Below, one piece after another: positions 3,672-35,272 of a stretch of DNA of 42,158 bases; the first letter of the stretch is position 1, and each line of letters starts with the position of its first letter. Source of the DNA: Patescibacteria group bacterium. Its GTDB lineage: Bacteria > Patescibacteriota > Microgenomatia > UBA1400 > MFAQ01. The notes below the pieces were generated by a model. It saw nothing but the letters and a program-made list of their open reading frames with translations, made no database searches and was not told the origin of the DNA. The stretch is taken from positions 1-42,158 of the forward strand of contig JAHJQJ010000031.1 of NCBI GenBank assembly GCA_018819325.1, read 5' to 3'. The translations under genes and the position numbers were made by a program.

Positions 3672-3690
3672 GTGCACCTCCAAGGTGCAC
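3672..3690 (+). repeat. REP-A palindrome copy 1 (GTGCACCTCCAAGGTGCAC)
   Basis: 8-bp stem GTGCACCT/AGGTGCAC with a 3-nt loop, 26 nt upstream of the RAYT-1 start. Confidence 0.9.
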
Positions 3691-3716
3691 GGCCTTTGTG
3701 GTAAGATGGTGATAAT

Positions 3717-4388
3717 ATGCCAGGAAGGAAAGAGCTGTTGGTAACGGGTGAGTATTATCATGTTTTTAATAAAGGTATAGACCAGAGGAGTACGTTTGAT
3801 GATAAAAGTGACTATAAAAGAATGGTTGAGACGCTTGGATTTTATCGGTTTATGGAGCCTGGCATTAGATTGTCGAGATATTTTGAATATGAGGAGAAAA
3901 TGAAGAATGAATATCTTGAGAATTTGGAATCTGAGGATTTATTGGTTGATGTACTGGTTTATGAACTGATGCCGAACCATTTTCATTTAATTATTAGACA
4001 ATTGGTGGATGGAGGATTATCTTTGTATATGAGTCGGGCAATAAATAGCTATACTCGTTATTTTAATGTTCGTCATGAGAGGAAGGGAGGACTGTTTACT
4101 GGAAATTTTAAGGCGGTAAGGATTGGGTCTGCTGAACAGATGAAGCATGTTTCAAGGTATGTGCATTTAAATTTGTATACAGCAAAAATTGTGAATAATT
4201 TTCGTGCGTTAGCTGGTTACGAATGGTCGTCATTGCCAGAGTACCTGGGTAAAAAAGATGGTTTGTGTAATAAAGAAATGATTTTGGGGTTGTTTGGTGA
4301 TAATGTTGAGAGATATTGGAAGTTTATAAAAGATGGGTCTGATTATCAGAGGAGGTTGAGTGAGATTAAAAAATTGATGTTGGAGTAA
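3717..4388 (+). CDS. IS200-like Y1 (HUH) transposase, REP-associated tyrosine transposase class (RAYT-1)
   Basis: YHVFNKG N-terminal motif, HUH motif LMPNHFHLIIRQ and catalytic-Tyr region VSRYVHLNL. Flanked on both sides by REP-A. Confidence 0.85.
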   Translation: MPGRKELLVTGEYYHVFNKGIDQRSTFDDKSDYKRMVETLGFYRFMEPGIRLSRYFEYEEKMKNEYLENLESEDLLVDVLVYELMPNHFHLIIRQLVDGGLSLYMSRAINSYTRYFNVRHERKGGLFTGNFKAVRIGSAEQMKHVSRYVHLNLYTAKIVNNFRALAGYEWSSLPEYLGKKDGLCNKEMILGLFGDNVERYWKFIKDGSDYQRRLSEIKKLMLE

Positions 4389-4390
4389 GT

Positions 4391-4409
4391 GTGCACCTCC
4401 AAGGTGCAC
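4391..4409 (+). repeat. REP-A palindrome copy 2
   Basis: Identical 19-mer, 2 nt after the RAYT-1 stop codon, in the same orientation as copy 1. Confidence 0.9.
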
Positions 4410-4411
4410 GT

Positions 4412-5155
4412 TTAAGAGTAGTAGTGGAGGATGCGGAGGCGGTAGAAGACGGCGGCGGTTTCCCAAAGCATTTGGTATATGGTTTTTAGGGTGGCGGCGG
4501 AGGTTAAGTTGCCTGATTGGAAGTTTAGTTTAATAGGGGCTTCATATATTCGTTTGAAACCTAAGTGATTGGCTACTGCTAAAAGTTCGATGTCGAAGGC
4601 GTAGTGTTTGACGACTAAACGGGGCAGGACCTTTTTTAGAACTTTGGCTCGGAAAAGTTTGATGCCTGCTTGGGTATCGGTAAGTTTGATGCCAAATAAG
4701 AGCTTGACTAAACGATGGTAGCCCCAGCTTAAGACTCGGCGATTAAAAGGATAGTTTATTTGGGAGGCCAAATGGCGTTTGGAGCCGACGATGATGTCTG
4801 CTTTGTACCATTCTAGATGTGCAAGAAGCATGGAAAGTCCGGCGGGGTCTATTTCTCTACCAGCGTCGATGAAGGCTATTAAGTCGCCTTTGGCCTTGGT
4901 GAAACCAAAACGGACGGCGTGGCCTTTGCCTTGGTTTTTTTTAAGTAGGTAGGTTTTGACGTTTGGCTTGTCCTGGGCGAAGGTTTTGGCTTTTTGATAG
5001 GTGGAATCAACGGCGCCGTCTACTATTATTATCATCTCGAATGGTTGGTTGGATTTGCCAAGAACTTGATAGATGTGTTTTAAGTCACCGGTGATGGTTC
5101 TTGCTTGTTTGTGGGCAGGAATGATGACTGATAAAAGTGTTGGTTTCATATACAA
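4412..5155 (-). CDS. Family 2 glycosyltransferase (polyprenyl-phosphate sugar synthase-like)
   Basis: LSVIIPAHKQ, IIIVDGAVDST, IAFIDAG. About 247 aa, soluble DPM1-like architecture. Confidence 0.8.
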   Translation of the reverse strand: MYMKPTLLSVIIPAHKQARTITGDLKHIYQVLGKSNQPFEMIIIVDGAVDSTYQKAKTFAQDKPNVKTYLLKKNQGKGHAVRFGFTKAKGDLIAFIDAGREIDPAGLSMLLAHLEWYKADIIVGSKRHLASQINYPFNRRVLSWGYHRLVKLLFGIKLTDTQAGIKLFRAKVLKKVLPRLVVKHYAFDIELLAVANHLGFKRIYEAPIKLNFQSGNLTSAATLKTIYQMLWETAAVFYRLRILHYYS

Positions 5156-5162
5156 TCTGACT

Positions 5163-6176
5163 ATGAAGTCTGTGAGTGTGATTATAGCGACATTTAATGC
5201 GGGAAGTGTGTTTGAAGAGTATCTGAAGAGTATTAAGAGTCAGGATTATGACCATAAAAAAATTGAGATTATTGTGGCGGATGGTGGATCGACGGATGGA
5301 ACTGTTGAGTTGGCCAAAAAATATGGTTGCAGGGTGATTATGGAAAAAACTGGTAGTCCGGAAGGAGCCAAGGCGGTAGCCTTGAAAAAGGCTAAAAACG
5401 AGTTAATATTGATAGGAGATAGTGATAATATCTGGCCTAGTAAGACTTGGCTTAAGAAAATGATAGAGAAAGATTCTGGACAAGCCAGAATGACGAAGGA
5501 GATACTGGCGGTTTATCCTTGGAGATATACGTATAGAAAAAAAGATAGTTTGATGAATCGGTATTTTGCTTTGTTGGGGGCCAATGACCCGGTGGTGTGG
5601 TTTTTGGGTAAAACAGATAGGCAGAGTTATTTATCTGATAAGTGGGGTCTGGGGGGCAAGCTAATTAAAGAAACAAAAAAATATTTTGTGGTGGAGTATA
5701 GCCAAGATAACTTGCCAACCGTGGGGGCTAATGGGTTTTTAATAAGGCGAAAAGATTTGTTAAAGGCCAAGGTGGGTGAGAAAGATTATTTTCATATAGA
5801 TGTAATTTTAGATTTAGTTAAGAAAAAACCTAGGAAATTTGTGGTTTTGAAGACTGACATTGTTCACAAGACCGGTGAGGACTTGGTAAGTTTTTTGAGG
5901 AAGCGTAGCAGGTACATGAGAGAGTTATATTTGCGGGATAGCTCTAGACGGAGGTATTTTATTTATAAACTTGGTAGGGATGAAGTTAAGACTTTGTGGT
6001 TCTCTCTATATGCTTTGAGTGTGGTGTTGCCATTGATAGACGCTATTAAAGGATATGTTAAAAAAAGAGATTTGGCCTGGTTTATGCACCCGGTGATGTG
6101 TTTTTGTATTTTTTGGGTGTATTTTTTAGTTGTGTTAAGGCACTTGTGGGAAGTTAAGATAAGAAATATATTATGA
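5163..6176 (+). CDS. Family 2 glycosyltransferase with C-terminal membrane segment
   Basis: The start is moved to ATG 5163 (MKSVSVIIATFNAG), because the upstream part of ORF 5073 overlaps the divergent gene. Motifs IIVADGGSTDGT and LIGDSDN. In-frame element at 5473-5495. Confidence 0.8.
   Translation: MKSVSVIIATFNAGSVFEEYLKSIKSQDYDHKKIEIIVADGGSTDGTVELAKKYGCRVIMEKTGSPEGAKAVALKKAKNELILIGDSDNIWPSKTWLKKMIEKDSGQARMTKEILAVYPWRYTYRKKDSLMNRYFALLGANDPVVWFLGKTDRQSYLSDKWGLGGKLIKETKKYFVVEYSQDNLPTVGANGFLIRRKDLLKAKVGEKDYFHIDVILDLVKKKPRKFVVLKTDIVHKTGEDLVSFLRKRSRYMRELYLRDSSRRRYFIYKLGRDEVKTLWFSLYALSVVLPLIDAIKGYVKKRDLAWFMHPVMCFCIFWVYFLVVLRHLWEVKIRNIL
5473..5495 (+). repeat. Short hairpin element (ATTCTGGACAAGCCAGAATGACG), in frame within a CDS
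   Basis: TTCTGG/CCAGAA stem. Identical to the right end of the 64-nt element at 29967-30030. Translated as DSGQARMT; the same peptide occurs in ORF 40491-41921. Confidence 0.8.
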
Positions 6177-6943
6177 AACCTAAATTATCGGTAGTTATCT
6201 GTACCAAGGGGAGAGATGAGACTTTAAAAGAAACCCTGGAGAGTTTAAAGAAACAGTCGTTTAAAAACTGGGAGTTGGTGGTGGTTAGGGAGACGCCTTT
6301 GTCTAAGGCTAGGGACTTGGGCTGGCGACGGAGTAAGGGAGAGATTGTGGCTTGGATTGATGATGATGTGGTTTTAGATAAAGACTGGGCTAAAAATTTA
6401 GTTAAGATTTTTGATGAGAATAAAGATGTGGGTGGGGTGAGTGGACCAACGATTGTGCCGGCTGACTTACTTAAAAACAGAATGGTGTTTTGGTGGTATG
6501 GAGCTAAGGGGTGGAAGAAGCCTTTGGCTTGGATTTGGAAACAGACAATGCTTAATGGTAAACCGTTTGCGGTTGGGAGAATTTGGAAGATTGGTTGGTG
6601 GTCGCCAGGGTCTAATTTTAAGGAGTGTTTGAAACTTAAGGGACTGCAAGAAGTTGACTATTTAGAGGCTTGCAACATGAGTTTAAGGAGGAGTTTGGTA
6701 AAAAAAGTGGGTGGGTTTGATTTAGGGTATGAAGGCACCAGTGAGTGGTGCGAGGTAGATTTAGCCATGAGAGTTGCTCGTTTAGGTCAAAATAAAGTGA
6801 ACGATCGTTCATGTAAGTTGGTGTGGAGCAGAGAGGTTAAATTAAAACACATGGTGAGTCGGGCGGGGGTGTATGTTGACAGACGACGATTGAAGGAGAG
6901 ATTTAAAAATTATTTTAGGTTTTATAGGAGGCATATTTTATGA
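6173..6943 (+). CDS. Family 2 glycosyltransferase
   Basis: LSVVICTKGR and VAWIDDDVV. 4-nt overlaps with both neighbouring genes. Confidence 0.8.
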   Translation: MKPKLSVVICTKGRDETLKETLESLKKQSFKNWELVVVRETPLSKARDLGWRRSKGEIVAWIDDDVVLDKDWAKNLVKIFDENKDVGGVSGPTIVPADLLKNRMVFWWYGAKGWKKPLAWIWKQTMLNGKPFAVGRIWKIGWWSPGSNFKECLKLKGLQEVDYLEACNMSLRRSLVKKVGGFDLGYEGTSEWCEVDLAMRVARLGQNKVNDRSCKLVWSREVKLKHMVSRAGVYVDRRRLKERFKNYFRFYRRHIL

Positions 6944-7917: not shown

Positions 7918-7932
7918 TAAGGCTACAATTTT

Positions 7933-9781: not shown

Positions 9782-10104
9782 TGAAGATTAATAAATTAAA
9801 GAACATGAAGGGCGGGTGGTTTGTGGGTGATTTTGTGCCAAGTGTGTTTAGAACCAAGGATTTTGAGGTGGCGTATATGACTCACTATAAGGGTCAGGAA
9901 TGGCCGAAGCATTATCATAAAGTAGCGAGTGAGATTAATTATTTAATTAGAGGAAAGATGAAGATAAATAGAGAGATATTGGAGGAAGGGGATATTTTCG
10001 TGATTGAGCCTGGGGAGGTGGTAAAGCCTGAATTTATGAGTGACTGTGAGTTAATAGTGGTTAAAACGCCAAGTGTGGTAGGAGATAAATATGAGATTGA
10101 ATAG
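9781..10104 (+). CDS. Cupin-fold protein
   Basis: 107 aa with HYHK...E...GD...P.G pattern typical of small cupins. Its start overlaps the upstream stop codon. Confidence 0.45.
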   Translation: MKINKLKNMKGGWFVGDFVPSVFRTKDFEVAYMTHYKGQEWPKHYHKVASEINYLIRGKMKINREILEEGDIFVIEPGEVVKPEFMSDCELIVVKTPSVVGDKYEIE

Positions 10105-11269
10105 AAAGAAATACAACAAAAATAAGTATCTGGTGGTGGAGTATTTTTTGCAGTCTAAGACCAGTTTGCAAGAGGCGGCTTGGGCGATTGCGGTGGGACA
10201 AAGTATTGGTAATCCCAATGTGCGTAATGGTTGGGAGACAAAGGAGTTGGTTGAAAAACATGTGGCGTTGATATTGGCAGAAAAAGAAAAGTTAGAGAAG
10301 GAAAAACAGGGAAGAGTGAAAATTGCTTTTCCTTTGGCGAATATTAACCTGAAGGAAGATGGAGTGAGTCAGTTGTTGGTGCAGATAATGGGGGGGCAGT
10401 TGGATATAGGGATAATTAACAAGTGTTTTGTAGAGGATATTGAATTACCAAATGATTTTAGGTTTTTTAAGCCCAAATTTGGCGTTGAAGGGATTAGAAA
10501 GTTCACAGAAGTTTATAACAAGCCTTTGTTGGGAGGAATAATAAAACCCAAGGTGGGGTTGAGGCCAAAACAGTTGTTGGAAGTGGTTAAAGAAATGGTG
10601 GAAGGCGGGGTTAATTTTATTAAGGAAGACGAGATAATGGCTAACCCTGATTGTTGCCCATTGGAAGAACGAGTAAGTTTAGTGATGAAGTACTTGAAAG
10701 GTAAAAGGGTGATATATGCGGTGTGTGTGAACGGGGATTATCCGTATGTAATTGATAGGGTGAAAAAGGTTTATAAACTGGGTGGTAACGCGGTGCATGT
10801 GAACTGGTGGGCTGGTTTTGGGGTGTATAAGGCTATTAGAGAGTTGGATTTGCCTTTGTTTTTGTTTTTTCAGAAAAGTGGGGATAAGATAATTACTAAC
10901 GAGAAACACGCGTTTCATATTAAATGGAAGGTGATGTGTAAGTTGGCGGGCATGATGGGGGTGGACATGATTCATGCCGGTATGTGGGGAGGGTATTTAA
11001 GTGATGATCAAAAGAGTTTGAAAGAAATAATGGATGAGTTGTCTAGTCTGGGTGTGTTACCGTCTTTGAGTTGTGGGATGCACCCTGGTTTGGTGGGGGT
11101 TGTAAGCAAAAAATTTGGGGTGGATTACTTGGCTAACGTAGGTGGGGCGATTCATGGCCACCCGGGTGGTACCAAGGCTGGGGCGATGGCTATGAGACAG
11201 GCGATTGATGGGGTGGAAGGCAAAGAGTATGGTTTGGCGGTAAAAAAATGGGGGAAAGTTGCATTTTAA
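10091..11269 (+). CDS. RuBisCO large-subunit superfamily protein, probably a RuBisCO-like protein (form IV-like)
   Basis: GGIIKPKVGL (K175/K177 equivalents), GGVNFIKEDE (K201, D203, E204 equivalents) and GGAIHGHPGGTKAGAMAMRQA. By eye alignment, the E60/T65/W66 region reads AVGQSIGNP, the N123 region reads MGG, the H294-R295 region reads FFQKSG, and the K334 position is GG. Confidence 0.7.
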   Translation: MRLNRKKYNKNKYLVVEYFLQSKTSLQEAAWAIAVGQSIGNPNVRNGWETKELVEKHVALILAEKEKLEKEKQGRVKIAFPLANINLKEDGVSQLLVQIMGGQLDIGIINKCFVEDIELPNDFRFFKPKFGVEGIRKFTEVYNKPLLGGIIKPKVGLRPKQLLEVVKEMVEGGVNFIKEDEIMANPDCCPLEERVSLVMKYLKGKRVIYAVCVNGDYPYVIDRVKKVYKLGGNAVHVNWWAGFGVYKAIRELDLPLFLFFQKSGDKIITNEKHAFHIKWKVMCKLAGMMGVDMIHAGMWGGYLSDDQKSLKEIMDELSSLGVLPSLSCGMHPGLVGVVSKKFGVDYLANVGGAIHGHPGGTKAGAMAMRQAIDGVEGKEYGLAVKKWGKVAF

Positions 11270-16127: not shown

Positions 16128-17674
16128 AAAAGAGATTAAAATTACTGGGGGTTTTGGGGTTGGCGCTATTTGGATTGATGTTGTTATTGGGAAATATTTC
16201 TTATCCTTTATTATGGAATGATGAGGCGGAAACAGCAGTTTATGCCCAGAGAATATTGCGTTTTGGATATCCAAAAGTTTTTGATGGTAAAAATATTTTA
16301 TATTTATTTGAACATCCAAATAAGGATTTGGCGGTCAAAGAAGGAATGGGGGCTTATATTGGTTCTGGGTGGACTCAGTATTACTTGGCGACGATAGGGG
16401 AGTTTTTTGCTGGTAAAATTAGCGATATTTATGTTAAAACGGCCTTGTTACGGCTACCCTTTGCTTTGATTGGTTTGTTGGGGGTGGTGATGATGGGTTT
16501 GGCAATAGATTGGTTGTTTAATGATAAATTACAGTTTTGGTTGGTGTTTTTGTTATTTACGGTTTCGTCGGTGCCTTTGATTTTGCATTTGCGGGAAGTG
16601 CGTTATTATTCTTTGCTTTTGTTTTTTATGGCGGGTGTTCTTTATTCTTATATTAGACATCATTTTGGTAATAAAATGAGTTACTTGAAGTATTGTTGGT
16701 GTTTGGCGGGGTGTTTGAGTTTGGTTTTTTATACTTTTTTTCCGGCATATATTATTTTGGCTGGGACGATAGTTTTGTATGAGTTGTTTGGAGAGAAAAA
16801 AATTAAAAGTTTGTTACCGATAATTATTTCTGGCCTGTTGGTGCTGCCGGGGATGATTTTTTTTGAGACATCGAGGATATCTATAGAGATATCTAGCTTT
16901 TTGGAGTTTGGCTGGTTTGATTATTTTTATCATATTTTTCAAATGATGAAATCTGCGTTAGTGTATGAGTTTTTGTTGGTGGTTTTGTTTATTAAAGTAA
17001 TTCTTTTTAAGAAAGGTTTGGATAGGGGAATAAAGGGAAGGGCGGCAGATTTTTTGGGTTTGCTGACGGTGATTTACGTTTTGTTGATTGCCAGAACTCC
17101 CTATATGTTTGAACGTTATTTTATTGTCTTACAACCGGTTTTGGTTTTGATATTGATTTTGGAAGGAGCTGGTTTGTTTGAATTGAAAAAAAAAGACTTA
17201 AAAAGAGCGTTGGTAATGGTGTTGTTACTAGGATTACCGGTTTTGGGAATAAAGGTTACCGCCTTAAGGAACAGGCTTTATGAGGTTGGAAATAGATATC
17301 TTGGTCCCCTAGATGTAGTAATTCCGTATATTAGAGCTAATTATGATAGGCCTGGTGATCTTTTGATTGCCACAAATTATGAGGAAGCGGTCTATATGTA
17401 TTATTTGGATAGTAGAATGATTGTAGGATATATTGAGAATGATTTAGAATCGGACTTGAGCCTACAGCCAGATGTGATTGTTCCGCGGCGGAAGTGGAAA
17501 AGAAATTTAGAGGCGCTTGATAAACTTAGGCAGAGAGGTGACTATAAACAAGTATTGTTTTCTGTGTTTGATAGTATTACCAATAGTATTCCAGAAACGT
17601 CGAGCCATTTATATAAAACCAGACTGACTAAAGATAAAGCCGAAATGAGCAGGATTTATATAAGACGGGATTGA
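16124..17674 (+). CDS. GT-C-type (ArnT/PMT-like) integral membrane glycosyltransferase candidate
   Basis: At least 10 hydrophobic helices, a first-loop WNDEAETAVYAQ (acidic DE motif) and a soluble C-terminal domain. Confidence 0.5.
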   Translation: MKKRLKLLGVLGLALFGLMLLLGNISYPLLWNDEAETAVYAQRILRFGYPKVFDGKNILYLFEHPNKDLAVKEGMGAYIGSGWTQYYLATIGEFFAGKISDIYVKTALLRLPFALIGLLGVVMMGLAIDWLFNDKLQFWLVFLLFTVSSVPLILHLREVRYYSLLLFFMAGVLYSYIRHHFGNKMSYLKYCWCLAGCLSLVFYTFFPAYIILAGTIVLYELFGEKKIKSLLPIIISGLLVLPGMIFFETSRISIEISSFLEFGWFDYFYHIFQMMKSALVYEFLLVVLFIKVILFKKGLDRGIKGRAADFLGLLTVIYVLLIARTPYMFERYFIVLQPVLVLILILEGAGLFELKKKDLKRALVMVLLLGLPVLGIKVTALRNRLYEVGNRYLGPLDVVIPYIRANYDRPGDLLIATNYEEAVYMYYLDSRMIVGYIENDLESDLSLQPDVIVPRRKWKRNLEALDKLRQRGDYKQVLFSVFDSITNSIPETSSHLYKTRLTKDKAEMSRIYIRRD

Positions 17675-17768
17675 TGATTATATATAATGACGGACGTGGA
17701 TGAGGGAAACAGGTGGATTATTAGGGGTGAGAAAAACTAGGCGATGCTTTGTGGTTTAAAATTGAGTA

Positions 17769-18557
17769 ATGAGGATGTATTGTGTTGTTTGTGGTGAGAA
17801 GTCAGATAAGAATAAGTTTATTTTTAGAAAGATATTGACTGATGGTTTGGTTTTGGATTGGGGTTTGACTGATAAACAAAGGCGGGGAAGAGACGAGAAA
17901 GAGTCTATGTTTTGCCCGGTGTGTAGCAGTTCAATGAGGTCTAGGGCTTTGGCTAGGGGAATAATGGAATCAAGATTTTTTAAGGGCGTAAATAACTTGA
18001 CTGAGTGGGTGGAAGTGGCTTCTAAAGTTGGGCTTAAGGTGGCGGAGATAAATTATTGTGGTGATTTGCACCCTATATTGAATAAACTACCTGGTTTGGT
18101 TCTGAGCCAGTATAGCGAGGTTAGTTTTAGGGCTAGGTTTTTTAATTGGTTGAAAGGAGTTAAAAAGGAGGATATTACAAACCTTTCATACGAAGATAAT
18201 AGTTTTGACTTGGTAGTTCATAGTGAAGTTTTAGAACATGTATATGATGTGGACAGGGCCTTAAGTGAGTGTGGGAGGATATTGAAACCTAATGGGGTTT
18301 GTGTGTTTACCATACCGGTAATAATGAGAAGAAAGACGATTAAAAGAGCAGAGGTTGATAGAGAAACTGGTGAGATTAAGTACTTGCTTAAACCTTCATA
18401 TCACGGATCTGGAGAAAAGAATAATTTAGTTTTTTGGGAATTTGGAGGTGATTTTATAAAGAATAGAGGGTTGAAAGTGTTGTTTGGGTCTTCCCAAAAC
18501 GGTGTGTATGTTTTTATTATTAACAAAGGTGAGACCTTGGTTAAGAATCGAGGATGA
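17769..18557 (+). CDS. Class I SAM-dependent methyltransferase with N-terminal Cys-pair zinc-ribbon-like motifs
   Basis: CVVCGE...CPVCSS, then NSFDLVVHSEVLEHV and LKPNGVCVFTIP. The last 9 codons are encoded by a REP-B copy. Confidence 0.7.
   Translation: MRMYCVVCGEKSDKNKFIFRKILTDGLVLDWGLTDKQRRGRDEKESMFCPVCSSSMRSRALARGIMESRFFKGVNNLTEWVEVASKVGLKVAEINYCGDLHPILNKLPGLVLSQYSEVSFRARFFNWLKGVKKEDITNLSYEDNSFDLVVHSEVLEHVYDVDRALSECGRILKPNGVCVFTIPVIMRRKTIKRAEVDRETGEIKYLLKPSYHGSGEKNNLVFWEFGGDFIKNRGLKVLFGSSQNGVYVFIINKGETLVKNRG
18520..18544 (+). repeat. REP-B palindrome copy (TTAACAAAGGTGAGACCTTGGTTAA)
   Basis: Contains the stop codon of RAYT-2 (minus strand) and the 3' end of the methyltransferase gene (plus strand). 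Confidence 0.85.
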
Positions 18558-19217: not shown

Positions 19218-19242
19218 TTAACAAAGGTGAGACCTTGGTTAA
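19218..19242 (+). repeat. REP-B palindrome copy
   Basis: 23 nt upstream of the RAYT-2 start (minus strand). Same sequence as 18520-18544. Confidence 0.85.
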
Positions 19243-19259
19243 AGTGGGTGTTGTATATA

Positions 19260-19784
19260 ATGACGGGTATGGATGAGGGGAATAGGTGGATTATGTGGTT
19301 GATGTTTTTTGCGGTGGTGGGTTTGGCGTTTTTTTTGCCGTTGGTGGATAATGATTTTGGTTGGCATTATGTGTGTGGTAATCGGATATTGTCTGGTGCT
19401 CGTTGGTGTTTGGAGAATGACTTGACATATTTGTTACCTGGCTATAAGTGGGCTTACACGGCTTTTATTTACGACGCTTTGATTGCTTGGGGATATAACT
19501 TGGGTGGCTTTTTGATTTGGCAGTTACCAGAAATGAAGATGTTCGTGGATGGTCGGATGCCGGCCTGGATAGGGGAGGGAAGTAAAAGTCCTTACACTAC
19601 TTGGTTGGAGGTGATTCAGGCACAGCCGGGTTGGAATGAGTACTTGTTGGGTATGGGAACGGAGTACTTGTTGATCGCGCCGGGGACGTTTTTGGACTTG
19701 GAACTTGATGAGGGTGGGGCTCTGGAGTTGGGATGGGAGGAAGAATATAGGGATAAGGGGGCGGTGGTTTATGGACGGATGTAA
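19260..19784 (+). pseudogene. Internally deleted remnant of a GT-C-like membrane protein gene
   Basis: The N-terminal first TM plus DNDFGWHY motif is joined directly to a C-terminal soluble tail (MFVDGRMP...YLLIAPG...GWEEEYRD), without the expected multi-TM core. Its promoter and first ~13 codons are duplicated at 17676-17727. Confidence 0.45.
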
Positions 19785-19789: not shown

Positions 19790-19814
19790 TTAACAAAGGT
19801 GAGACCTTGGTTAA
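19790..19814 (+). repeat. REP-B palindrome copy between convergent genes
   Basis: Same 25-mer. It overlaps the stop codon of gene 19811-20452. Confidence 0.85.
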
Positions 19815-21842: not shown

Positions 21843-22883
<1,041 letters not shown>

Positions 22884-22905: not shown

Positions 22906-23087
22906 GTCACGTAATACTTTCTAAGAAAGAAAGTAAACGTGACTAACCACGTTTAAATTTTGAAAAAATTTATTACGTGGTGGACCTGGGCGGAATTGGA
23001 CCGCCAATTTACCCGTGCGAGGGGTACGGTATACCGTTTACCTACAGGCCCACGTAATAAATTTCTTATTAAGAAATTTAAACGTGG
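22906..23087 (+). other. Cluster of three long AT-rich hairpins with CCACGT/ACGTGG arm ends, plus a GC-richer structured core
   Basis: Hairpins at 22906-22943, 22947-22980 and 23050-23087. An alternative 12-bp pairing TTTATTACGTGG/CCACGTAATAAA encloses 22981-23049, which contains the GGCGG/CCGCC and CGGTATACCG palindromes. Confidence 0.5.
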
Positions 23088-23203
23088 CTGGGGCCACATA
23101 AGAACGTCTATCGCAGAGCAATATTACGTTCAACGTGGCTGGGGCCACATAAGAACGTCTATCGCAGAGCAATATTACGTTCAACGTGGCTGGTGCCACA
23201 TGA
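23081..23203 (+). repeat. 51-bp tandem direct repeat, about 2.4 copies
   Basis: The unit AACGTGGCTGGGGCCACATAAGAACGTCTATCGCAGAGCAATATTACGTTC occurs at 23081-23131 and, identically, at 23132-23182. A diverged partial third unit begins at 23183. Confidence 0.9.
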
Positions 23204-24076: not shown

Positions 24077-24152
24077 GGGCCCGTAGCTCAGTTGGTAGAG
24101 CGCCTGCGTGGCACGTAGGAGGCAAGGGGTTCGATCCCCCTCGGGTCCACCA
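24077..24152 (+). tRNA. tRNA-Ala (anticodon GGC) with encoded CCA end
   Basis: Manual fold: acceptor stem GGGCCCG/CGGGTCC with the G3:U70 Ala identity pair, D arm GCTC-AGTTGGTA-GAGC, anticodon stem CCTGC/GTAGG with loop GTGGCAC, T arm GGGGG-TTCGATC-CCCCT, then ACCA. Confidence 0.9.
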
Positions 24153-29077: not shown

Positions 29078-29114
29078 AGAGCTATTATAAATATATAGTA
29101 TATAGTAGGAAGTG

Positions 29115-29810
29115 ATGAAGTGGCTAGTGGATTGGTTTGTTGATTTTGTTTATCCAAAGGACTGTGTGGGTTGTGGTTGTTTGGGGACATGGTTGTGTGA
29201 TAAATGTAAGCGAAGTTTTGAGGAGGTGGAGCAGATTTGCCCGATGTGCGGGAAGGAAAACTTGGGTGGAAGTGTACACAAAATGTGTTCAGAAAGGCTG
29301 GGAATGGATGGGTTGACGGCGGTTTATAATCATGGGGAAAGGACAATGAGTGGGTTGATTTTTAGAGTGAAGTTTGAGTATTGTGAGGAGTTGTTGGAGG
29401 AGTTTGTGAAGTTGCTGGATTTTGAGGTGGGTAAGAAGTTTGATGTGGTGGTGCCGGTGCCGTTACATATATATAGAAGGAACTGGCGGGGGTTTAATCA
29501 GGCAAGAGTGATTGCGGATGAGGTGGGTAGGCAGTTGGGGTTGCCGGTGGTGGAGGGGTTGAGGCGGGTGAAGCGAGGTAAACAGCAGTCGAAGATAAAG
29601 GATAGGGAGGGGAGGCGGGAGAATGTGAAGGGGGTGTTTAAGATTGGTATGGATTCCCGCCTGCGCGGGAATGACGGTTTAAAAGATAAAGCAGTTTTGC
29701 TGGTGGATGATGTGTTTACCAGTGGGGCGACGATGCGGGAGGCGTGTAAAGTATTAAAGCAGGCGGGGGCTAAGTTTGTGTGGGGGTTGGTATTGGCGAG
29801 GAGGGTTTGA
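29115..29810 (+). CDS. comFC: ComF family protein (ComFC-like phosphoribosyltransferase-fold competence protein)
   Basis: N-terminal double zinc ribbon (CVGCGC...CDKC...CPMCG) and the PRTase motif VLLVDDVFTSGATMREA. GTG 29112 is an alternative start. In-frame PE-J insert. Confidence 0.8.
   Translation: MKWLVDWFVDFVYPKDCVGCGCLGTWLCDKCKRSFEEVEQICPMCGKENLGGSVHKMCSERLGMDGLTAVYNHGERTMSGLIFRVKFEYCEELLEEFVKLLDFEVGKKFDVVVPVPLHIYRRNWRGFNQARVIADEVGRQLGLPVVEGLRRVKRGKQQSKIKDREGRRENVKGVFKIGMDSRLRGNDGLKDKAVLLVDDVFTSGATMREACKVLKQAGAKFVWGLVLARRV
29651..29676 (+). repeat. Palindromic element PE-J (GGATTCCCGCCTGCGCGGGAATGACG), in frame within a CDS
   Basis: TCCCGC/GCGGGA stem. Translated as DSRLRGND. An identical copy lies at 30925-30950. 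Confidence 0.85.
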
Positions 29811-29833
29811 GGGTTTTCCCTTTGTCATTCTGG

Positions 29834-29913
29834 GGACGAATTCTGATGAGGACTCCGGAATCAGATTCTGGATGCGTTCGAAGACTCACTTACCAGAATG
29901 ACGGAAAAGAAAA
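29834..29913 (+). mobile_element. MITE-like element PE-G, long form (80 nt; GTCATTCTGG...CCAGAATGAC termini)
   Basis: 10-bp terminal inverted repeats. The first ~50 nt are identical to 29967-30016. Confidence 0.75.
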
Positions 29914-29966
29914 TGCTGACGCTAGATTCTTCGTTTCATTCTTCATACTACACCCTACTTCTTCAT

Positions 29967-30030
29967 GTCATTCTGGGGACGAATTCTGATGAGGACTCCG
30001 GAATCAGATTCTGGACAAGCCAGAATGACG
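29967..30030 (+). mobile_element. MITE-like element PE-G, 64-nt form
   Basis: GTCATTCTGGGGACGAATTCTGATGAGGACTCCGGAATCAGATTCTGGACAAGCCAGAATGACG. An inverted copy lies at 40831-40892. Confidence 0.8.
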
Positions 30031-30046
30031 ATGAGAGAATGATTGT

Positions 30047-30889
30047 ATGGAGACGAAGGAGATGAAGGTAATGGGGGTAAAGGTGTATTGCAAGGGGGAT
30101 TTGGGGCTGTTGGATGAGGGGAAGGTGAGGTTGGCGATTGTGGGGAGTCGGAAGATGACGGATTATGGCAGGCGGGTGATTGAGAAACAAGTGCCTGTAC
30201 TGGTGCAGGCGGGGGTGGTGATTGTTTCTGGCTTTATGTATGGGGTGGATCAGGCGGCGCACGAGGTTTGCTTAGATTGCGGAGGTGAGACGATTGCGGT
30301 GTTGGGCTGGGGGATTGATAGGGGGTTGTCGATTGAGGATGAAAAATTGTATGAGAAGTTTATTAAGGGAAAAAGTTTGATGATGAGTGAGTATTACGGC
30401 GAGGCGATGGCGGAGCAGTGGATGTTTGTGCAAAGGAACAGGATTGTGGTGGGTTTGAGTGCGGCGGTGTTGGTGGTGGAGGCGGCGGTGAAGTCGGGGA
30501 CGATGACCAGTGTGAGGTGGGCTAAGAAAATGAACAAACCCGTTTTGTGCGTGCCAGGGTTGATTACGAGTAAGGTGAGTGAGGGGGCGAATGGGTTAAT
30601 TAAGTCTGGAGAGGCGAAGATGGTGACCGGGGTGGAGGATATTTTGGAGGTGTTGGGTCTTAAGCCTGGACAAATGAAACTTGGTGGGGTCCCGCACCAG
30701 TCGGTGCAGGATGACGGGGATTTAACAAAGGTGAGACCTTTGTTAAGATGGCTAGAGAATGAGGGGATGGAGGTGGACAGGTTGGCTAAATTGATGAAAC
30801 GGTCGGCGAGTCAGGTGATGGTGGAGTTGACGCGGTTGGAGATTTTGGGGCAGGTGGAACAGAGGGGTGGGAAGTTTTATATTGTTTAA
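30047..30889 (+). CDS. dprA: DNA processing protein DprA (Smf)
   Basis: LAIVGSRKMTDYGRRV, SGFMYGVDQAAHEVCL, AVLGWGID, and VVEAAVKSGTMTSV followed by a C-terminal winged-helix-like tail. Two in-frame palindromic inserts lie in the linker. Confidence 0.85.
   Translation: METKEMKVMGVKVYCKGDLGLLDEGKVRLAIVGSRKMTDYGRRVIEKQVPVLVQAGVVIVSGFMYGVDQAAHEVCLDCGGETIAVLGWGIDRGLSIEDEKLYEKFIKGKSLMMSEYYGEAMAEQWMFVQRNRIVVGLSAAVLVVEAAVKSGTMTSVRWAKKMNKPVLCVPGLITSKVSEGANGLIKSGEAKMVTGVEDILEVLGLKPGQMKLGGVPHQSVQDDGDLTKVRPLLRWLENEGMEVDRLAKLMKRSASQVMVELTRLEILGQVEQRGGKFYIV
30690..30716 (+). repeat. Palindromic element PE-D copy, in frame within dprA
   Basis: TCCCGCACCAGTCGGTGCAGGATGACG, translated as PHQSVQDDG. Confidence 0.8.
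30722..30746 (+). repeat. REP-B palindrome copy, in frame within dprA
   Basis: TTAACAAAGGTGAGACCTTTGTTAA, translated as LTKVRPLLR. This is a different reading frame from the copy at 1810. Confidence 0.85.
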
Positions 30890-30895
30890 TAATGT

Positions 30896-30920
30896 TTAAC
30901 AAAGGTGAGACCTTTGTTAA
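30896..30920 (+). repeat. REP-B palindrome copy (intergenic, dprA-comM)
   Basis: Perfect copy, 7 nt after the dprA stop codon. Confidence 0.85.
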
Positions 30921-30924
30921 GAAT

Positions 30925-30950
30925 GGATTCCCGCCTGCGCGGGAATGACG
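30925..30950 (+). repeat. Palindromic element PE-J copy (intergenic)
   Basis: Identical to 29651-29676 and adjacent to a REP-B copy. Confidence 0.85.
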
Positions 30951-30994
30951 TGGGGAAAATGATTCGGCCTGACCTTTTATGTATACTCTAAGAT

Positions 30995-32572: not shown

Positions 32573-32593
32573 TGAAGAGACGAGAAAAGACGA

Positions 32594-32645
32594 GGGATTG
32601 GGCTCTGCAGGCCAGAAGGCCAGTCCAAAATTGGCAGCGGGACGG
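32594..32645 (+). repeat. Palindromic element PE-F copy (GGGATTGGGCTCTGCAGGCC...GGCAGCGGGACGG)
   Basis: Family with 5 copies. This one is followed by the conserved module GATTTTGTTGACATGTT.TG.TATATT.TTAAT, also found at 41905-41945. Confidence 0.8.
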
Positions 32646-32685
32646 TTGGTTGATTTTGTTGACATGTTATGGTATATTGTTAATA

Positions 32686-33357
32686 TTAACTCGTTTTGGA
32701 TGGGCGTTTACGCTGGTTCGAACGAGTTTTTGTTTGCCAGAATTTTCTGGCTATTTTTTTCCAACTAATTGTTTTTTCGACGATTATTTTTTCTTTAATT
32801 AACTGATAAAATTTGTCGTTTTTGTTTGTTGTTGCCCAGAGAACACTGCCAGCAATCATGTCTGCTGAATTTACGGCGGGTACTTTTTGGCTGTCAACGT
32901 GGCTGATAGCGAATTTTTTCTTTAGAAGTTTTGTTAAGATTAGGTCGAATTCTTCTTGATCTATTAAACGGTGAAAGTGGCGGTCAAATATGATTTTTTT
33001 TAAGTTGTTTTGGTAAAGTAGCTTGCATTCTTCTATTAATTGCCAACAGAGGATGGCAAAGTTTTCGGGTGAGTCTTTGATTGATTTTCCTTGTTTTTCG
33101 ACGATTAAAACAAAGATGTCGATGTTTTTGTTGGCAAGAGTTTTTAGGAACTTTGTTTTGGTTTTATCTCCTGCCCTGTAAAATTTTATTTCAGATAACT
33201 TTTTAGCGTCACGGGTTTTTCTGATGGTTTTTGTTACAGAAGTTAGTTGAGAAATTATATTGGTGCCAACTGCGGCAACTATTACTACTTTGTCTTTTGG
33301 ATCAGGTAGGGTGCCGGATTCGTCGATGAAGATGGTGATGTTTAGTTTATTTAGCAT
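32686..33357 (-). CDS. DUF3800-like protein
   Basis: N-terminal ITIFIDESGTL motif typical of DUF3800, 223 aa. Lies inside the insertion at the comM 3' end. Confidence 0.5.
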   Translation of the reverse strand: MLNKLNITIFIDESGTLPDPKDKVVIVAAVGTNIISQLTSVTKTIRKTRDAKKLSEIKFYRAGDKTKTKFLKTLANKNIDIFVLIVEKQGKSIKDSPENFAILCWQLIEECKLLYQNNLKKIIFDRHFHRLIDQEEFDLILTKLLKKKFAISHVDSQKVPAVNSADMIAGSVLWATTNKNDKFYQLIKEKIIVEKTISWKKIARKFWQTKTRSNQRKRPSKTS

Positions 33358-33387
33358 GGTGGCTGTAGTTGGTTAATAATGTGATAA

Positions 33388-33446
33388 GGGACAGGGGGGA
33401 CTGGGGACCGATGCCAAAGGCCGGTGCAATATCGGCACTGGGACGG
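33388..33446 (+). repeat. Palindromic element PE-F-like, diverged copy
   Basis: GGGACAGGGGGGACTGGGGACCGATGCCAAAGGCCGGTGCAATATCGGCACTGGGACGG. Confidence 0.6.
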
Positions 33447-33481
33447 CTTAGGTCGCGGTGTCTCATGAGGTGGACGCAGGC

Positions 33482-33560
33482 TAGGTTACAGTTAAGCATA
33501 GCTTGCTCTAGTTTGGCAATAGCCAGATCTTGGTCGGCGAATCTGATGGAGTGGGCGGAG
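33482..33560 (-). pseudogene. Fragment of a four-helix-bundle (23S IVS/Avd family) gene
   Basis: About 84 percent nucleotide identity (by eye) to 40210-40288 of the intact gene 39977-40489. It lacks both gene ends and is fused to the right copy of the comM 3' repeat through the microhomology GTGG(G)CGG. Confidence 0.7.
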
Positions 33561-33588
33561 GCGTTGCAGTATAGGATTAAGGTTTTTT
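33551..33588 (+). repeat. Right copy of the 37-38 bp direct repeat (duplicate of the comM 3' end)
   Basis: GTGGGCGGAGGCGTTGCAGTATAGGATTAAGGTTTTTT. It would encode the same AEALQYRIKVF-stop tail. Confidence 0.9.
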
Positions 33589-33597
33589 AGTAGCCGT

Positions 33598-33743
33598 AAA
33601 ATACCCCTGCCAAAGTCAGAACCGTAGTCGTTCATTCCGGCGAATGAACGCTACATATTGGCTCGGCTTGAAAATTCTGATTAAGAAATCAGAATACCAT
33701 GCTTTCACGCCTGCGCATATTTCTTTTTTGGCAAGGGTATTTT
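33598..33743. mobile_element. 146-nt element with 17-bp terminal inverted repeats and two internal hairpins (MITE-like or structured RNA)
   Basis: Arms AAAATACCCCTGCCAAA / TTTGGCAAGGGTATTTT (1 mismatch). Internal stems CGTTCATTC-CGGC-GAATGAACG and ATTCTGAT-TAAGAA-ATCAGAAT. Confidence 0.6.
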
Positions 33744-33759
33744 GTGGCATAATTTATTT

Positions 33760-34152
33760 GTGAAAAGATTTAATAAGCAGACTGGGGGTAGGGGAGAACG
33801 GGAGGCGGAGAGGTTGTTGCGGGAAAAGGGGTATAAAATTTTGGAGATGAACTGGGGGAATAAATGGGGTGAGGTGGATTTGATTTGTGTGGACCCGCCT
33901 ACGCGTAAAGCTACGGCGAGGCGAAGTGAAACGGTGGTTTTTGTGGAGGTGAAGGCGAAAATTGGTTATGAATATGGCGCGCCGTGGCAGATGGTGAATA
34001 GGCGGAAATTAGCGCAGGTAAGGCGGATGGGGGGGTTATTTTTGACTGAGAAGGGTTGGCAGGATAAGGCTTGTAGGATTGATGTGGTGGGGGTGGTGTT
34101 TGATAGGGGTGGGAAGGTGGTTGAGGTTGATCATTACGAAAATGTGTATTAA
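33760..34152 (+). CDS. yraN: YraN family (UPF0102) endonuclease-fold protein
   Basis: GEREAERLLREKGYKILEMNW..GEVDLIC...VVFVEVKAK. Start set at GTG 33760, preceded by TGgCATAAT-N6; the ORF could start at TTG 33742. There is an extra ~10 aa (PPTRKATARR) encoded by an imperfect palindrome around 33895-33930. Confidence 0.75.
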   Translation: MKRFNKQTGGRGEREAERLLREKGYKILEMNWGNKWGEVDLICVDPPTRKATARRSETVVFVEVKAKIGYEYGAPWQMVNRRKLAQVRRMGGLFLTEKGWQDKACRIDVVGVVFDRGGKVVEVDHYENVY

Positions 34153-34157
34153 TAAAG

Positions 34158-34201
34158 GATCAACCTTCGGGAGGGTGCGACCCTCTTGAGGGTCGCACCC
34201 T
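34158..34201 (+). repeat. REP-C palindrome, variant copy (GGATCAACCTTCGGG-AGGGTGCGACCCTC-TT-GAGGGTCGCACCCT)
   Basis: 14-bp perfect stem with a 2-nt loop, 16 nt upstream of the RAYT-3 start. Confidence 0.9.
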
Positions 34202-34217
34202 ATGGTACAATTAGGTA

Positions 34218-34868
34218 ATGCCTGCCAAACATACTTATAGGGAATTTATTGAAAATCATCCTCAACACATTTTTAATCGTGGTGTAGAAAAACGTGTCAT
34301 ATTTACAAATCAACAAGATTACCGAACGTTTTTGTACTATTTGACAATTTACCTGGCTAAACCAAAAACACTTGAAACTAGATTTCCCACCTTACCAGGA
34401 AACCTGAAAATCAACAACGTTAGTGAACAAATTAAATTACTTACTTATTGCTTTATGCCCAACCATTTTCATTTACATCTTGCTCCTACAAATATAGAAA
34501 CCAGCCAGGAAATTATACCTAAATTTATGCGTCAACTTAGTAATGCATATACTGGTTATTTTAATAAAAAATATGACAGAGTTGGCCCATTGTTTCAGGG
34601 ACGTTATAAATCCGTCTTGGTTAGCTCAGATGAACAAAATGTCCACCTGCATAGGTATATCCAGACTAATCCGTTGACTGCAAAGTTAGTTAAAAATTTG
34701 CAAGATTGGCCGTGGTCAAGTTATCATGAATACGTTGGTGGGCAAAAATTGGACGATATTTGTCAAATAGAGGATATCTTTTCGCGATTTAAGAATCTTG
34801 ATTCTTATAAGAATTTCTTGCTTGAGCAAGTGGATACTGAATCAATTGAATCCATTCTGCTGGATTAA
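34218..34868 (+). CDS. IS200-like Y1 (HUH) transposase, RAYT class (RAYT-3)
   Basis: HIFNRG, HUH motif FMPNHFHLHLAP, Tyr region LHRYIQTNP. TACAAT-N6-ATG start context. Flanked by REP-C. Confidence 0.85.
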   Translation: MPAKHTYREFIENHPQHIFNRGVEKRVIFTNQQDYRTFLYYLTIYLAKPKTLETRFPTLPGNLKINNVSEQIKLLTYCFMPNHFHLHLAPTNIETSQEIIPKFMRQLSNAYTGYFNKKYDRVGPLFQGRYKSVLVSSDEQNVHLHRYIQTNPLTAKLVKNLQDWPWSSYHEYVGGQKLDDICQIEDIFSRFKNLDSYKNFLLEQVDTESIESILLD

Positions 34869-34870
34869 AA

Positions 34871-34916
34871 GGGATCAACCTTCGCTAGGGTCCGACCCTC
34901 TTGAGGGTCGGACCCT
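34871..34916 (+). repeat. REP-C palindrome copy (GGGATCAACCTTCGCT-AGGGTCCGACCCTC-TT-GAGGGTCGGACCCT)
   Basis: 2 nt after the RAYT-3 stop codon. 14-bp stem. Confidence 0.9.
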
Positions 34917-34922
34917 AATTCC

Positions 34923-35210
34923 TTATTGAAATTGAATGGATAGTTGGCTGTCAAAAGCTTGAGCGATTTTTTTTAGGAATGACAGAGATGGATTAGCTTG
35001 CATGGTTTCAATCCTTGAAATCGCTGCCTGAGAAGTATTAAGTTTTTTGGCCAGAGTTCTTTGAGACATTTTGTTCTTTAGTCGTTTGTCAATAATTTTT
35101 TTGGCTAGCAAGTATTCGGTTTCTGATTCTTGCCAGGCTTTTTTAAAGCCAGGATCTTTTAAACTTTCTTTGAGATCGTCTTCGAAGGTGTAAATTAGTT
35201 TGTTTTTCAT
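34923..35210 (-). CDS. XRE-family helix-turn-helix protein (paralogue 2)
   Basis: KMSQRTLAKKLNTSQAAISRIETMQANPSLSFLKKIAQAF. Start set at MKNKLIYTF (ATG 35210), outside the REP-C copy. Bracketed by two identical REP-C copies. Confidence 0.8.
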   Translation of the reverse strand: MKNKLIYTFEDDLKESLKDPGFKKAWQESETEYLLAKKIIDKRLKNKMSQRTLAKKLNTSQAAISRIETMQANPSLSFLKKIAQAFDSQLSIQFQ

Positions 35211-35226
35211 AATATATTTATGCATA

Positions 35227-35272
35227 GGGATCAACCTTCGCTAGGGTCCGACCCTCTTGAGGGTCGGACCCT
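35227..35272 (+). repeat. REP-C palindrome copy
   Basis: Identical to 34871-34916. It sits between the giant fibre gene stop codon and the XRE start. Confidence 0.9.

Follow-up and report, generated by a model that had tools for sequence, protein, structure and literature searches.

The 42-kb metagenome contig analysed here (JAHJQJ010000031.1, 42,158 nt in full, hereafter the window) is a piece of a Microgenomates-type Patescibacteria genome, and it encodes three Y1 HUH transposases, RAYT-1, RAYT-2 and RAYT-3, each bracketed within 0-26 nt by exact copies of a short palindrome of its own (P1, P2 and P3, respectively). These genes and palindromes probably form REPtron-like pairs, each made up of a fixed, diverged class-2 Y1 enzyme and a cognate short hairpin, which the enzyme would recognise and, by analogy with known systems, probably mobilise on single-stranded DNA. 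The same DNA is present in at least five other assemblies, two of them metagenome-assembled genomes (MAGs) from NCBI, and the closest named relatives of its Obg protein belong to Collierbacteria/Microgenomates.

Genes and flanking hairpins

The three Y1 open reading frames (ORFs) and the sequences of their palindromes agree with those of a first-pass annotation of this DNA, as do its copy numbers of four, six and three for P1, P2 and P3; the strand of RAYT-2, which is minus, was unstated there. The genes, their flanking hairpins and the nearby copies of P2 and P3 are as follows.

3717-4388, + strand: RAYT-1, Y1 HUH transposase of 223 aa; NHFHL; RYVHLNL; Pfam Y1_Tnp 28.7 bits
18541-19194, - strand: RAYT-2, Y1 HUH transposase of 217 aa; NHFHL; RYIHLNP; Pfam 41.2 bits
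34218-34868, + strand: RAYT-3, Y1 HUH transposase of 216 aa; NHFHL; RYIQTNP; Pfam 28 bits, NCBIfam 52.8 bits
3672-3690, + strand: P1 on the upstream side of RAYT-1; 26 nt between its end and the ATG
4391-4409, + strand: P1, downstream flank of RAYT-1; begins 2 nt past the stop codon
18520-18544, + strand: P2 (G variant) at the 3' end of RAYT-2; overlaps the RAYT-2 stop codon
19218-19242, + strand: P2 (G variant) upstream of RAYT-2; 23 nt before the ATG
19790-19814, + strand: P2 (G variant), third local copy; together with the copy at 19218 brackets a 185-aa ORF of unknown kind (19227-19784)
34155-34201, + strand: P3 unit (GGATCAACCTTCG and the 30-nt palindrome, G/C variant); 16 nt between its end and the RAYT-3 ATG
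34870-34916, + strand: P3 unit downstream of RAYT-3; begins 1 nt past the stop codon; where the stem of the upstream copy has G-C, this one has a compensatory C-G
35226-35272, + strand: P3 unit, third copy; together with the copy at 34870 brackets an HTH_3 gene (34923-35234, - strand)

P1 (GTGCACCTCCAAGGTGCAC) occurs in four exact copies (3672, 4391, 22164 and 24160), P2 (TTAACAAAGGTGAGACCTT[G/T]GTTAA) in six (1810, 18520, 19218, 19790, 30722 and 30896) and P3, a 30-mer (AGGGTSCGACCCTCTTGAGGGTCGSACCCT), in three (34172, 34887 and 35243); the chance expectation from 100 dinucleotide-preserving shuffles is zero in each case. No decayed extra copies at 1-2 mismatches were found in the window for any of the three palindromes. 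The 30-mer is the 3' part of a 47-nt unit beginning with GGATCAACCTTCG. For RAYT-1, RAYT-2 and RAYT-3, the spacing between hairpin and gene is 26, 23 and 16 nt upstream and 2, -4 and 1 nt downstream. The dispersal in the window that the first-pass annotation described for each hairpin applies to P1, with two solo copies, and to P2, with four copies more in the window and six further sites in a related MAG; P3 has a third local copy only, its three copies lying within 1.1 kb and the third 326 nt past the second.

Folding predictions for single-stranded DNA give a stable hairpin for every element, with energies of -6.7 to -17.2 kcal/mol and z values between -3.8 and -6.4. P3 consists of two 13-nt hairpins (AGGGT-SSG-ACCCT) joined as an inverted dimer; what distinguishes its two sequence variants is a compensatory swap of G-C for C-G in the stem. 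The variants of P2 are distributed by position: the mismatch-bearing G variant is found beside RAYT-2, and the distant copies are mostly of the perfect-stem T variant. The three hairpins had been called unrelated, and P1 does stand apart, in a separate class of the form CACC-loop-GGTG; P2 (AAGGT-GAG-ACCTT) and the P3 half-site (AGGGT-CCG-ACCCT), on the other hand, share an apical RGGT-NNN-ACCY pattern that is frequent in the family. The GGGGWSAS motif of terminal inverted repeats (TIRs) is absent from the flanks. An Rfam scan of the window found two tRNAs only, and the hairpins fit no curated RNA family. A terminator scan gave no intrinsic terminators at the P2 cluster, and since the hairpins lack a T-run they were rejected as plain intrinsic terminators. 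By consensus match only, the arms of P2 hold -35-like hexamers (TTAACA/TTGTTA) at proper spacing to -10-like boxes on both strands; in the copy at 19218, the arm gives a -35-like TTGTTA located 17 nt from TAAAAT just before the RAYT-2 ATG, again as a consensus match only.

All 13 copies in the window have the same orientation and lie on the G/T-rich strand, the one expected to be the lagging-strand template. This includes both P2 copies flanking the minus-strand RAYT-2, which are oriented + like every other P2 copy in the window. For all three genes the flanking copies are thus in direct, not inverted, orientation, although on near-perfect palindromes such calls hinge on a few loop bases.

The Y1 proteins and their family

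The three ORFs translate without interruption, and each carries MPNHFHL and an RY(I/V)..N tyrosine motif. NHFHL and RY(I/V)(H/Q)xNP had been assigned to all three proteins in the first-pass annotation; the HUH motif is indeed common to them, and the class-2 tyrosine motif reads YIHLNP in RAYT-2, YIQTNP in RAYT-3 and YVHLNL in RAYT-1, where the asparagine is kept and the proline is lost. All three are above the cut-off of Pfam Y1_Tnp (PF01797; 28-41 bits vs 23), the only family found in a Pfam scan of the proteins at E <= 0.01, which detected no C-terminal HTH (Bac_DnaA_C, HTH_23, HTH_28). Pairwise identity is 31-38% among RAYT-1, RAYT-2 and RAYT-3, and 31-47% among four paralogues when RAYT-4, encoded in the related MAG, is included. 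No near-identical Y1 duplicates were found in the window or in the MAG loci, and Pfam scans around the Y1 genes revealed no TnpB-like neighbour. RAYT-1 occurs in four other assemblies, RAYT-2 in five and RAYT-3 in four, and every assembly carrying a given Y1 gene has that gene at the same locus; the UPF0102 neighbour of RAYT-3 is retained even in an orthologue with 84% identity.

In an alignment of 60 homologues, H90, H92 and Y150 are invariant and the family consensus is LMPNHFHLL ... GxLFQG ... SRYIHLNP ... WSSY. A word-indexed search gave at least 8,000 matches; those listed are proteins of 205-235 aa, named just 'transposase', from Patescibacteria, Daviesbacteria, Beckwithbacteria and a few Chloroflexota. 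An exhaustive profile search yielded 3,625 family clusters at 50% identity (E <= 1e-30). The three proteins appear from these comparisons to be old, diverged paralogues within one very large Patescibacterial family, and not IS200 copies. That they are not ordinary IS200 copies had been implied in the first-pass annotation, and their low mutual identity, the missing tnpB neighbour, the Y...N(P) motif, the length of 216-223 aa and the fold match described below bear it out. Assigned by motif, their best fit would be the subclass 2.1 / Bertels Group 1 / TIRYT-like enzymes.

The AlphaFold model of RAYT-2 (pLDDT 86) had as its top Foldseek match in the PDB the entry 4ER8 (E 4e-5, TM 0.50/0.64), a complex of the E. 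coli RAYT with a REP hairpin. The TnpA proteins of ISDra2 and IS608 rank next, and as these IS200-type enzymes trail 4ER8 closely, structure gives no strong separation of RAYT from IS200-type TnpA. A single-sequence search of the PDB with RAYT-2 gave no match; profile searches gave weak matches, slightly better to ISDra2 TnpA than to 4ER8, which leave RAYT and IS200 TnpA unseparated.

Flanking hairpins across the family

The survey of relatives covered 80 metagenome loci encoding members of the family, with usable flanks in 71. A repeat was counted if the upstream and downstream flanks of a gene, taken as 200 nt each, shared it with a score of at least 15, and ORFs of the same loci served as controls. 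Such a repeat was found in both flanks of 45 of the 71 family genes (63%) and of 3 of 104 control ORFs (3%; Fisher p ~1e-19). When shared repeats with a score of at least 13 are considered (n=50), 39 contain a perfect hairpin, 32 are in direct and 18 in inverted orientation, and at least one further copy is present in 26 loci. The median distance is 21 nt from the end of the upstream repeat to the ATG and 5 nt from the stop codon to the beginning of the downstream repeat. The geometry of hairpins and genes in the window is typical of the family.

The class of the hairpin follows the clade of the protein. Hairpins of the P1-like CACC-loop-GGTG form are present in both flanks solely for proteins at least 41% identical to RAYT-1. 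Relatives of RAYT-2 with 86% and 56% identity carry near-P2 hairpins (TTAACAAAGGTCTCTCCTTTGTTAA and TT(A/T)ACAAAGG-ACGGA-CCTTTGTAAA), which differ mainly in the loop, and the 84% orthologue of RAYT-3 carries the P3 unit with just two central bases changed (TT in the window, AA at the orthologous locus, L113). Because of this correspondence the pairing of enzyme and hairpin is taken to be cognate, and its tightness implies direct recognition of the DNA by the protein.

A fourth pair was found in the MAG. The paralogue RAYT-4 (L018 4467-5185, contig JAHITH010000102.1) is 45% identical to RAYT-2 and has the hairpin CCTACAAGGTCTCACCTTGAAGGT in both flanks, with a third copy in frame within its own gene (L018 4663-4700, encoding SPPLQGLTLKV). 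On its G-rich strand this hairpin has the same apex as P2, AAGGT-GAG-ACCTT, and a different base.

The 86% relative of RAYT-2 differs in its upstream neighbour, which in one groundwater assembly is an IS30-like gene (HTH_38 and rve). The homology breakpoint (L109 2213-2260 vs L110 1010-1065) is located inside the left arm of the P2-like hairpin, and the hairpin seems to have served as an insertion sequence (IS) target in that assembly. Movement of the Y1 gene was ruled out as the cause of the changed neighbour, which is explained by the IS30-like insertion into the hairpin arm.

A 330-kb Patescibacteria contig (L023) encodes two RAYT-1-like genes (10001-10672 and 17278-17922) 7 kb apart, and each has inverted flanks of its own that contain a hairpin. 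In both L023 and L024 (10001-10669) the RAYT-1-like genes adjoin uvrA/uvrB/uvrC genes; a -35-like motif, TTGACACCT(AGGGA), is present in their upstream repeat.

Solo copies and hairpin turnover

Of the non-flanking copies in the window, seven in all, three are located in frame within genes (obg, dprA and a PMT-like gene), and the other four (P2 at 19790 and 30896, P3 at 35243 and P1 at 24160) lie just past stop codons or a tRNA. The solo copies of P1 and P2 are as follows.

1810-1834, + strand: P2 (T variant with a perfect stem), in frame within the ORF of a PMT_2/TPR membrane protein (1374-2813); encodes LNKGETFVK
22164-22182, + strand: P1, in frame inside obg (ORF 21843-22883; Pfam GTP1_OBG); encodes VHLQGAH in a surface loop
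24160-24178, + strand: P1, 8 nt past tRNA-Ala(ggc) (24077-24152)
30722-30746, + strand: P2 (T variant), in frame at the linker/winged-helix start of dprA (ORF 30047-30889), right after a repeat at 30682-30715
30896-30920, + strand: P2 (T variant), intergenic, 6 nt past the dprA stop codon

The Obg loop that holds the P1-coded stretch varies in length across close relatives, and the P2 copy in the PMT_2/TPR protein adjoins a 5-aa length difference relative to a Beckwithbacteria homologue. A 70-nt block around the dprA copy (30703-30772) recurs with 94% identity upstream of tpiA in the MAG (L017 1236-1305), so that the mobile unit, if such it is, may sometimes carry adjacent sequence along. The block consists of the end of a GGATGAC repeat, P2 and a 26-nt stretch that codes for WLENEGMEV at the beginning of the winged helix of DprA.

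P2 was found in one of 185,579 species genomes, the species-representative MAG, where it is present in 10 exact copies on 8 contigs, a number that is a lower bound given the fragmentation of this MAG. Six of these are in regions without a counterpart in the window; P2 is thus repeated beyond its own locus, in line with the dispersal described in the first-pass annotation. Sorted by strand, the 13 distinct P2 sites comprise 10 G-rich, 2 neutral and 1 C-rich. The copies in the window are all exact despite an extreme mutational skew. The aligned segments of window and MAG are 92-99.6% identical, and the 3' site of tRNA-Ala(ggc) is occupied by P1 in the window and by another repeat and P2 in the MAG. 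The restriction of P2 to one species, the identity of its copies and the two hairpin types at the same tRNA site suggest recent movement of the hairpins. From these comparisons, the Y1 genes appear to be fixed in place while the hairpins turn over.

Strand asymmetry and age of the genes

Over positions 1-34000 of the window, the GC skew of the + strand is +0.40 to +0.55 independently of gene direction, and at third codon positions it reaches 0.89. Strand disparity of this kind is known in UBA1400 Microgenomates and has been ascribed to largely unidirectional replication (PMC7143001). RAYT-1 has a GC skew of +0.53, equal to that of resident genes, and third-position skews of +0.83 for RAYT-1 and -0.69 for RAYT-2 (on its own coding strand) were obtained. 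Since their skew is fully equilibrated, these two genes are regarded as long-term residents. The third-position skew of RAYT-3 is 0.06, compared with 0.7-0.9 for resident and 0.5-0.9 for neighbouring + strand genes, and that of its 84% orthologue (L113 1634-2293) is -0.14, i.e. it is equilibrated in neither. Later acquisition of RAYT-3, or an inversion between its flanking palindromes, is a possible explanation.

At 34200-40000 the GC skew falls to approximately 0; this region holds RAYT-3, the HTH_3 gene and a 1568-aa ORF (35274-39980, - strand), in which Intein_splicing and Peptidase_S74 domains are found along with 7 internal repeats of 60 nt. The product of the latter looks like a phage tail-fibre type protein within recently acquired DNA. 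Membership of RAYT-3 in the foreign-looking region at 35-40 kb was ruled out, because the UPF0102-RAYT-3 synteny is kept in the 84% orthologue.

Proposed mechanism and alternative explanations

By analogy with E. coli TnpA-REP and with the TnpA of IS608 and ISDra2, the enzyme would bind the folded hairpin on single-stranded DNA, most likely on the lagging-strand template, cut beside the foot of the hairpin via a 5'-phosphotyrosine link and then rejoin the strand. The short hairpin element would be moved or copied in this way, while the gene of the enzyme itself would stay at a fixed chromosomal site. The REPtron-like unit would comprise a hairpin that precedes the start codon by approximately 16-26 nt and another at the stop codon; further copies of P1 and P2 lie at the 3' ends of genes, after the tRNA and in frame in protein loops and linkers. 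The strand bias of the hairpins agrees with the action on the lagging-strand template that would be expected from IS608/ISDra2 and from E. coli TnpA-REP.

Several observations weigh against this reading. The three proteins score 30.6, 49.1 and 52.8 bits with NCBIfam REP_Tyr_transpos (NF047646), the cut-off of which is 80. The canonical 5' GT[AG]G foot is absent from all three hairpins, whose 5' contexts are GT-GTGCACC (P1), mostly T or GT-TTAACA (P2) and CTTCG(CT/GG)-AGGGT (P3); a loose 5' GT is present in P1 at 4/4 and in P2 at 7/13 sites. Copy number is low, far under that of classical REP populations (10 copies of P2 in the MAG, local copies only for P3). RAYT-2 is antisense to the hairpin orientation that it shares with RAYT-1 and RAYT-3, so that either strand could be the substrate, and the orientation bias could stem from selection or mutation pressure instead. 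The P1 stretch of obg aligns without gaps to E. coli and B. subtilis Obg, which simple insertion leaves unexplained, and no clean empty site was found for it among 29 close Obg homologues. At tRNA-Ala(ggc), window and MAG differ over the entire spacer and not in the hairpin alone, so that no precise element boundary is visible. The REP/RAYT identity proposed in the first-pass annotation is partly upheld: the own flanking palindromes, the class-2 motif and the fold speak for it, and by their foot, copy number, NCBIfam score and direct flanks the systems are not canonical REP/RAYT.

It might be that the loci are autonomous IS200-like elements, of which hairpin-tnpA-hairpin moves as a whole and solo hairpins are remnants or derivatives like miniature inverted-repeat transposable elements. 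Both flanking hairpins being direct on one strand, as at the ends of IS200/IS605 elements (LE/RE of IS608), would fit this explanation, as would the name of the Pfam family ('Transposase IS200 like'), the slightly better PDB profile matches to ISDra2 TnpA, the non-equilibrated skew of RAYT-3, which suggests its later arrival or inversion, and the different neighbours of the 86% relative of RAYT-2. The last of these, however, is the sole context difference examined and was traced to the IS30-like insertion into a hairpin arm, and the flanks are inverted in 18 of 50 relatives. Moreover, no two copies are similar (31-47% identity), each gene has one fixed locus in all assemblies, with RAYT-3 still syntenic at 84% identity, and the proteins have Y...N(P) and not Y...Q, 216-223 and not ~150 aa, an SS-containing C-terminal tail and no tnpB, which are class-2 features according to Table 1 of PMC6006769. 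The IS200-like explanation is thus quite unlikely.

Another explanation could be that the hairpins are host regulatory or structural elements (3'-end stabilisers of mRNA, promoter parts or protein-binding sites), which owe their maintenance to selection and their spread to recombination or gene conversion, and that the Y1 proteins are domesticated and mobilise nothing. RAYTs in general have been argued to be domesticated (PMC5581495). The position of several copies directly past stop codons or the tRNA, the fixed geometry relative to start and stop codons across the family, and the -35-like hexamers in the P2 arms with their proper spacing to -10-like boxes on both strands are all in line with such a role, and in-frame copies alter protein length little or not at all. 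On the other side, hairpins without a T-run are no intrinsic terminators, copies within the coding loops of obg, dprA and the PMT-like gene are hard to see as regulatory, the species-restricted and identical copies of P2 and the two hairpin types at one tRNA site point to recent movement, and the clade-to-hairpin correspondence implies direct protein-DNA recognition. A purely regulatory role is accordingly considered unlikely. The metagenomic source of the contig might also raise the suspicion of chance palindromes or of an assembly artefact; this has a negligible probability, as the shuffles expect no copies and the identical sequence is present in at least five independent assemblies from different samples.

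Within the REPtron-like reading, a more specific proposal is rather improbable in our estimation. The Y1/hairpin pairs might act almost only on a permanently exposed lagging-strand template and write patches of 7-9 codons into loops of essential proteins (Obg, DprA and the PMT-like protein) by replacement and not by simple insertion; the obg copy leaves the length unchanged relative to E. coli and B. subtilis Obg. The clade-hairpin correspondence might also be readable across the Patescibacteria as a recognition code. If true, such a patch-replacement or template-switch mode would be undescribed for RAYTs.

Other repeats and genes of the window

Further hairpin repeat families were found that have no Y1 gene in the window, all of them ending in (G/A)GAATGAC or GGATGAC: GGATTCCCGCCTGCGCGGGAATGACG; a long GTCATTCTGG...CCAGAATGAC element; and CCCGCACCAGTCGGTGCAGGATGAC. 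Their copies are located as follows.

29653-29678, 30925-30950 and 40935-40953: further repeats
29824-29905, 29967-30030, 40831-40892 and 5472-5497: further repeats
8036, 24018 and 30682 (start positions): further repeats

One of these repeats is in frame in a ComF-like PRTase ORF (29112-29810) and another one is in the dprA linker beside P2. A 51-nt tandem duplication (98% identical) is located at 23078-23179, beside tRNA-Ala(cgc), and a sequence related to it is found in MAG JAHITH01 on the 3' side of tRNA-Ala(ggc), the place taken by P1 in the window. An ORF resembling the RuBisCO large subunit (PF00016; 10091-11269) is found amid a glycosyltransferase-rich region.

Comparison with known systems

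The findings leave the known REP/RAYT concept unchanged. What is new is the host group, the association of hairpins with a subclass-2.1-like clade that had been reported without REP-like sequences, and the family-wide correspondence between clade and hairpin. REPtron-like Y1/hairpin pairs are common in the Patescibacteria (~3,600 family clusters at 50% identity; 63% of the surveyed genes hairpin-flanked). The usual picture of genomes of this group is that they are minimal and contain few mobile elements. With its large number of diverged enzyme/hairpin pairs, the family represents a comparative data set for hairpin recognition by Y1 enzymes, in which RAYT-2 and RAYT-4 form a close pair with a shared hairpin apex and a different base. 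Strand asymmetry in the host is extreme and possibly unidirectional, and offers a clean test of action on the lagging-strand template only.

No earlier description of RAYT/REP in the Candidate Phyla Radiation (CPR)/Patescibacteria was found among the papers searched, and the main text of the 2018 survey (PMC6006769) does not mention Patescibacteria. Two statements of the first-pass annotation are outdated in the light of published work. REP/RAYT systems were said to be established mainly from Proteobacteria, whereas RAYT subclasses have been described beyond them, e.g. in Cyanobacteria and Bacteroidetes (PMC6006769, section 12; PMC5581495), and three co-resident systems were called notable, whereas genomes with several RAYTs and a separate repeat family for each have been published before (PMC6006769, PMC5581495, PMC3733652). 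The same holds for atypical hairpins that lack GT[AG]G, for flanking repeats of low copy number at Group 1 RAYTs and for intragenic REPs (PMC6006769, PMC5581495, PMC3733652).

The single-copy Y1 HUH genes bracketed by palindromes that are also dispersed resemble E. coli TnpA-REP (RAYT, YafM) and its REPtron, subclass 2.2 (PMC6006769), as do the class-2 Y...NP motif and the 4ER8 match of the RAYT-2 model. They differ in sequence (~11% identity) and in size, the window proteins having 216-223 aa with an extra C-terminal tail and the E. coli protein 165 aa. The hairpins differ from E. coli REPs as well: they lack the 5' GTAG foot, flank the genes in direct orientation and not as inverted pairs, and occur in tens and not in hundreds of copies. 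The canonical REP copy number is ~100 or more per genome, to be compared with the lower bound of 10 exact copies of P2 in the MAG, and inverted, REPIN/BIME-like flanks were not observed in the window.

Subclass 2.1, which corresponds to Bertels Group 1 and largely to the TIRYTs of Di Nocera et al. (PMC6006769, PMC5581495, PMC3733652), is characterised by NH[YF]H, FQ, Y[IV]HLNP and SS in the proximal tail (Table 1 in PMC6006769), and the family consensus fits this signature, as far as a comparison of motifs goes. Like Group 1 genes, those studied here are diverged paralogues of low copy number with modestly repeated flanks (10 P2 copies here, ~12 16-mers per replicon in Group 1). Some TIRs of TIRYTs are self-complementary and belong to small repeat families (PMC6006769, PMC5581495, PMC3733652). 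Quentin et al. found no REP-like hairpins beside subclass 2.1 genes (PMC6006769); here hairpins flank 63% of the surveyed family genes, and they are now tied to a 2.1-like/Group 1 subclass where a major survey found none. Other differences from subclass 2.1 are the lack of a detectable C-terminal HTH, the length of 216-223 aa compared with a median of 238 aa, and the lack of a GGGGWSAS TIR.

The resemblance to the IS200/IS605 family (IS608, ISDra2; subclass 1.1) comprises the fold, the catalytic motifs, hairpins at both ends on one strand and a strand bias as expected for transposition on the lagging-strand template; Y...Q, a core-only TnpA of ~150 aa, many near-identical copies and frequent tnpB are features of IS200/IS605, and none of them is found here. 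Several co-resident RAYT/repeat pairs with separate specificities are also known from Pseudomonas fluorescens and Stenotrophomonas (PMC3116915, PMC3686654), but those belong to subclasses 2.2/2.5, have GTAG REPs in hundreds and form REPIN dimers, whereas only P3 is dimer-like here. The in-frame hairpin within RAYT-4 is similar to the REP-in-tnpA insertions reported for subclass 2.4. Finally, the in-frame copies in loops and linkers resemble intragenic REPs and the Rickettsia palindromic elements (RPE; PMC3733652), which are in-frame palindromes in genes, often of DNA metabolism; the elements of the window are much shorter (19-25 nt, 7-9 codons), and the one in obg involves no net change in length.

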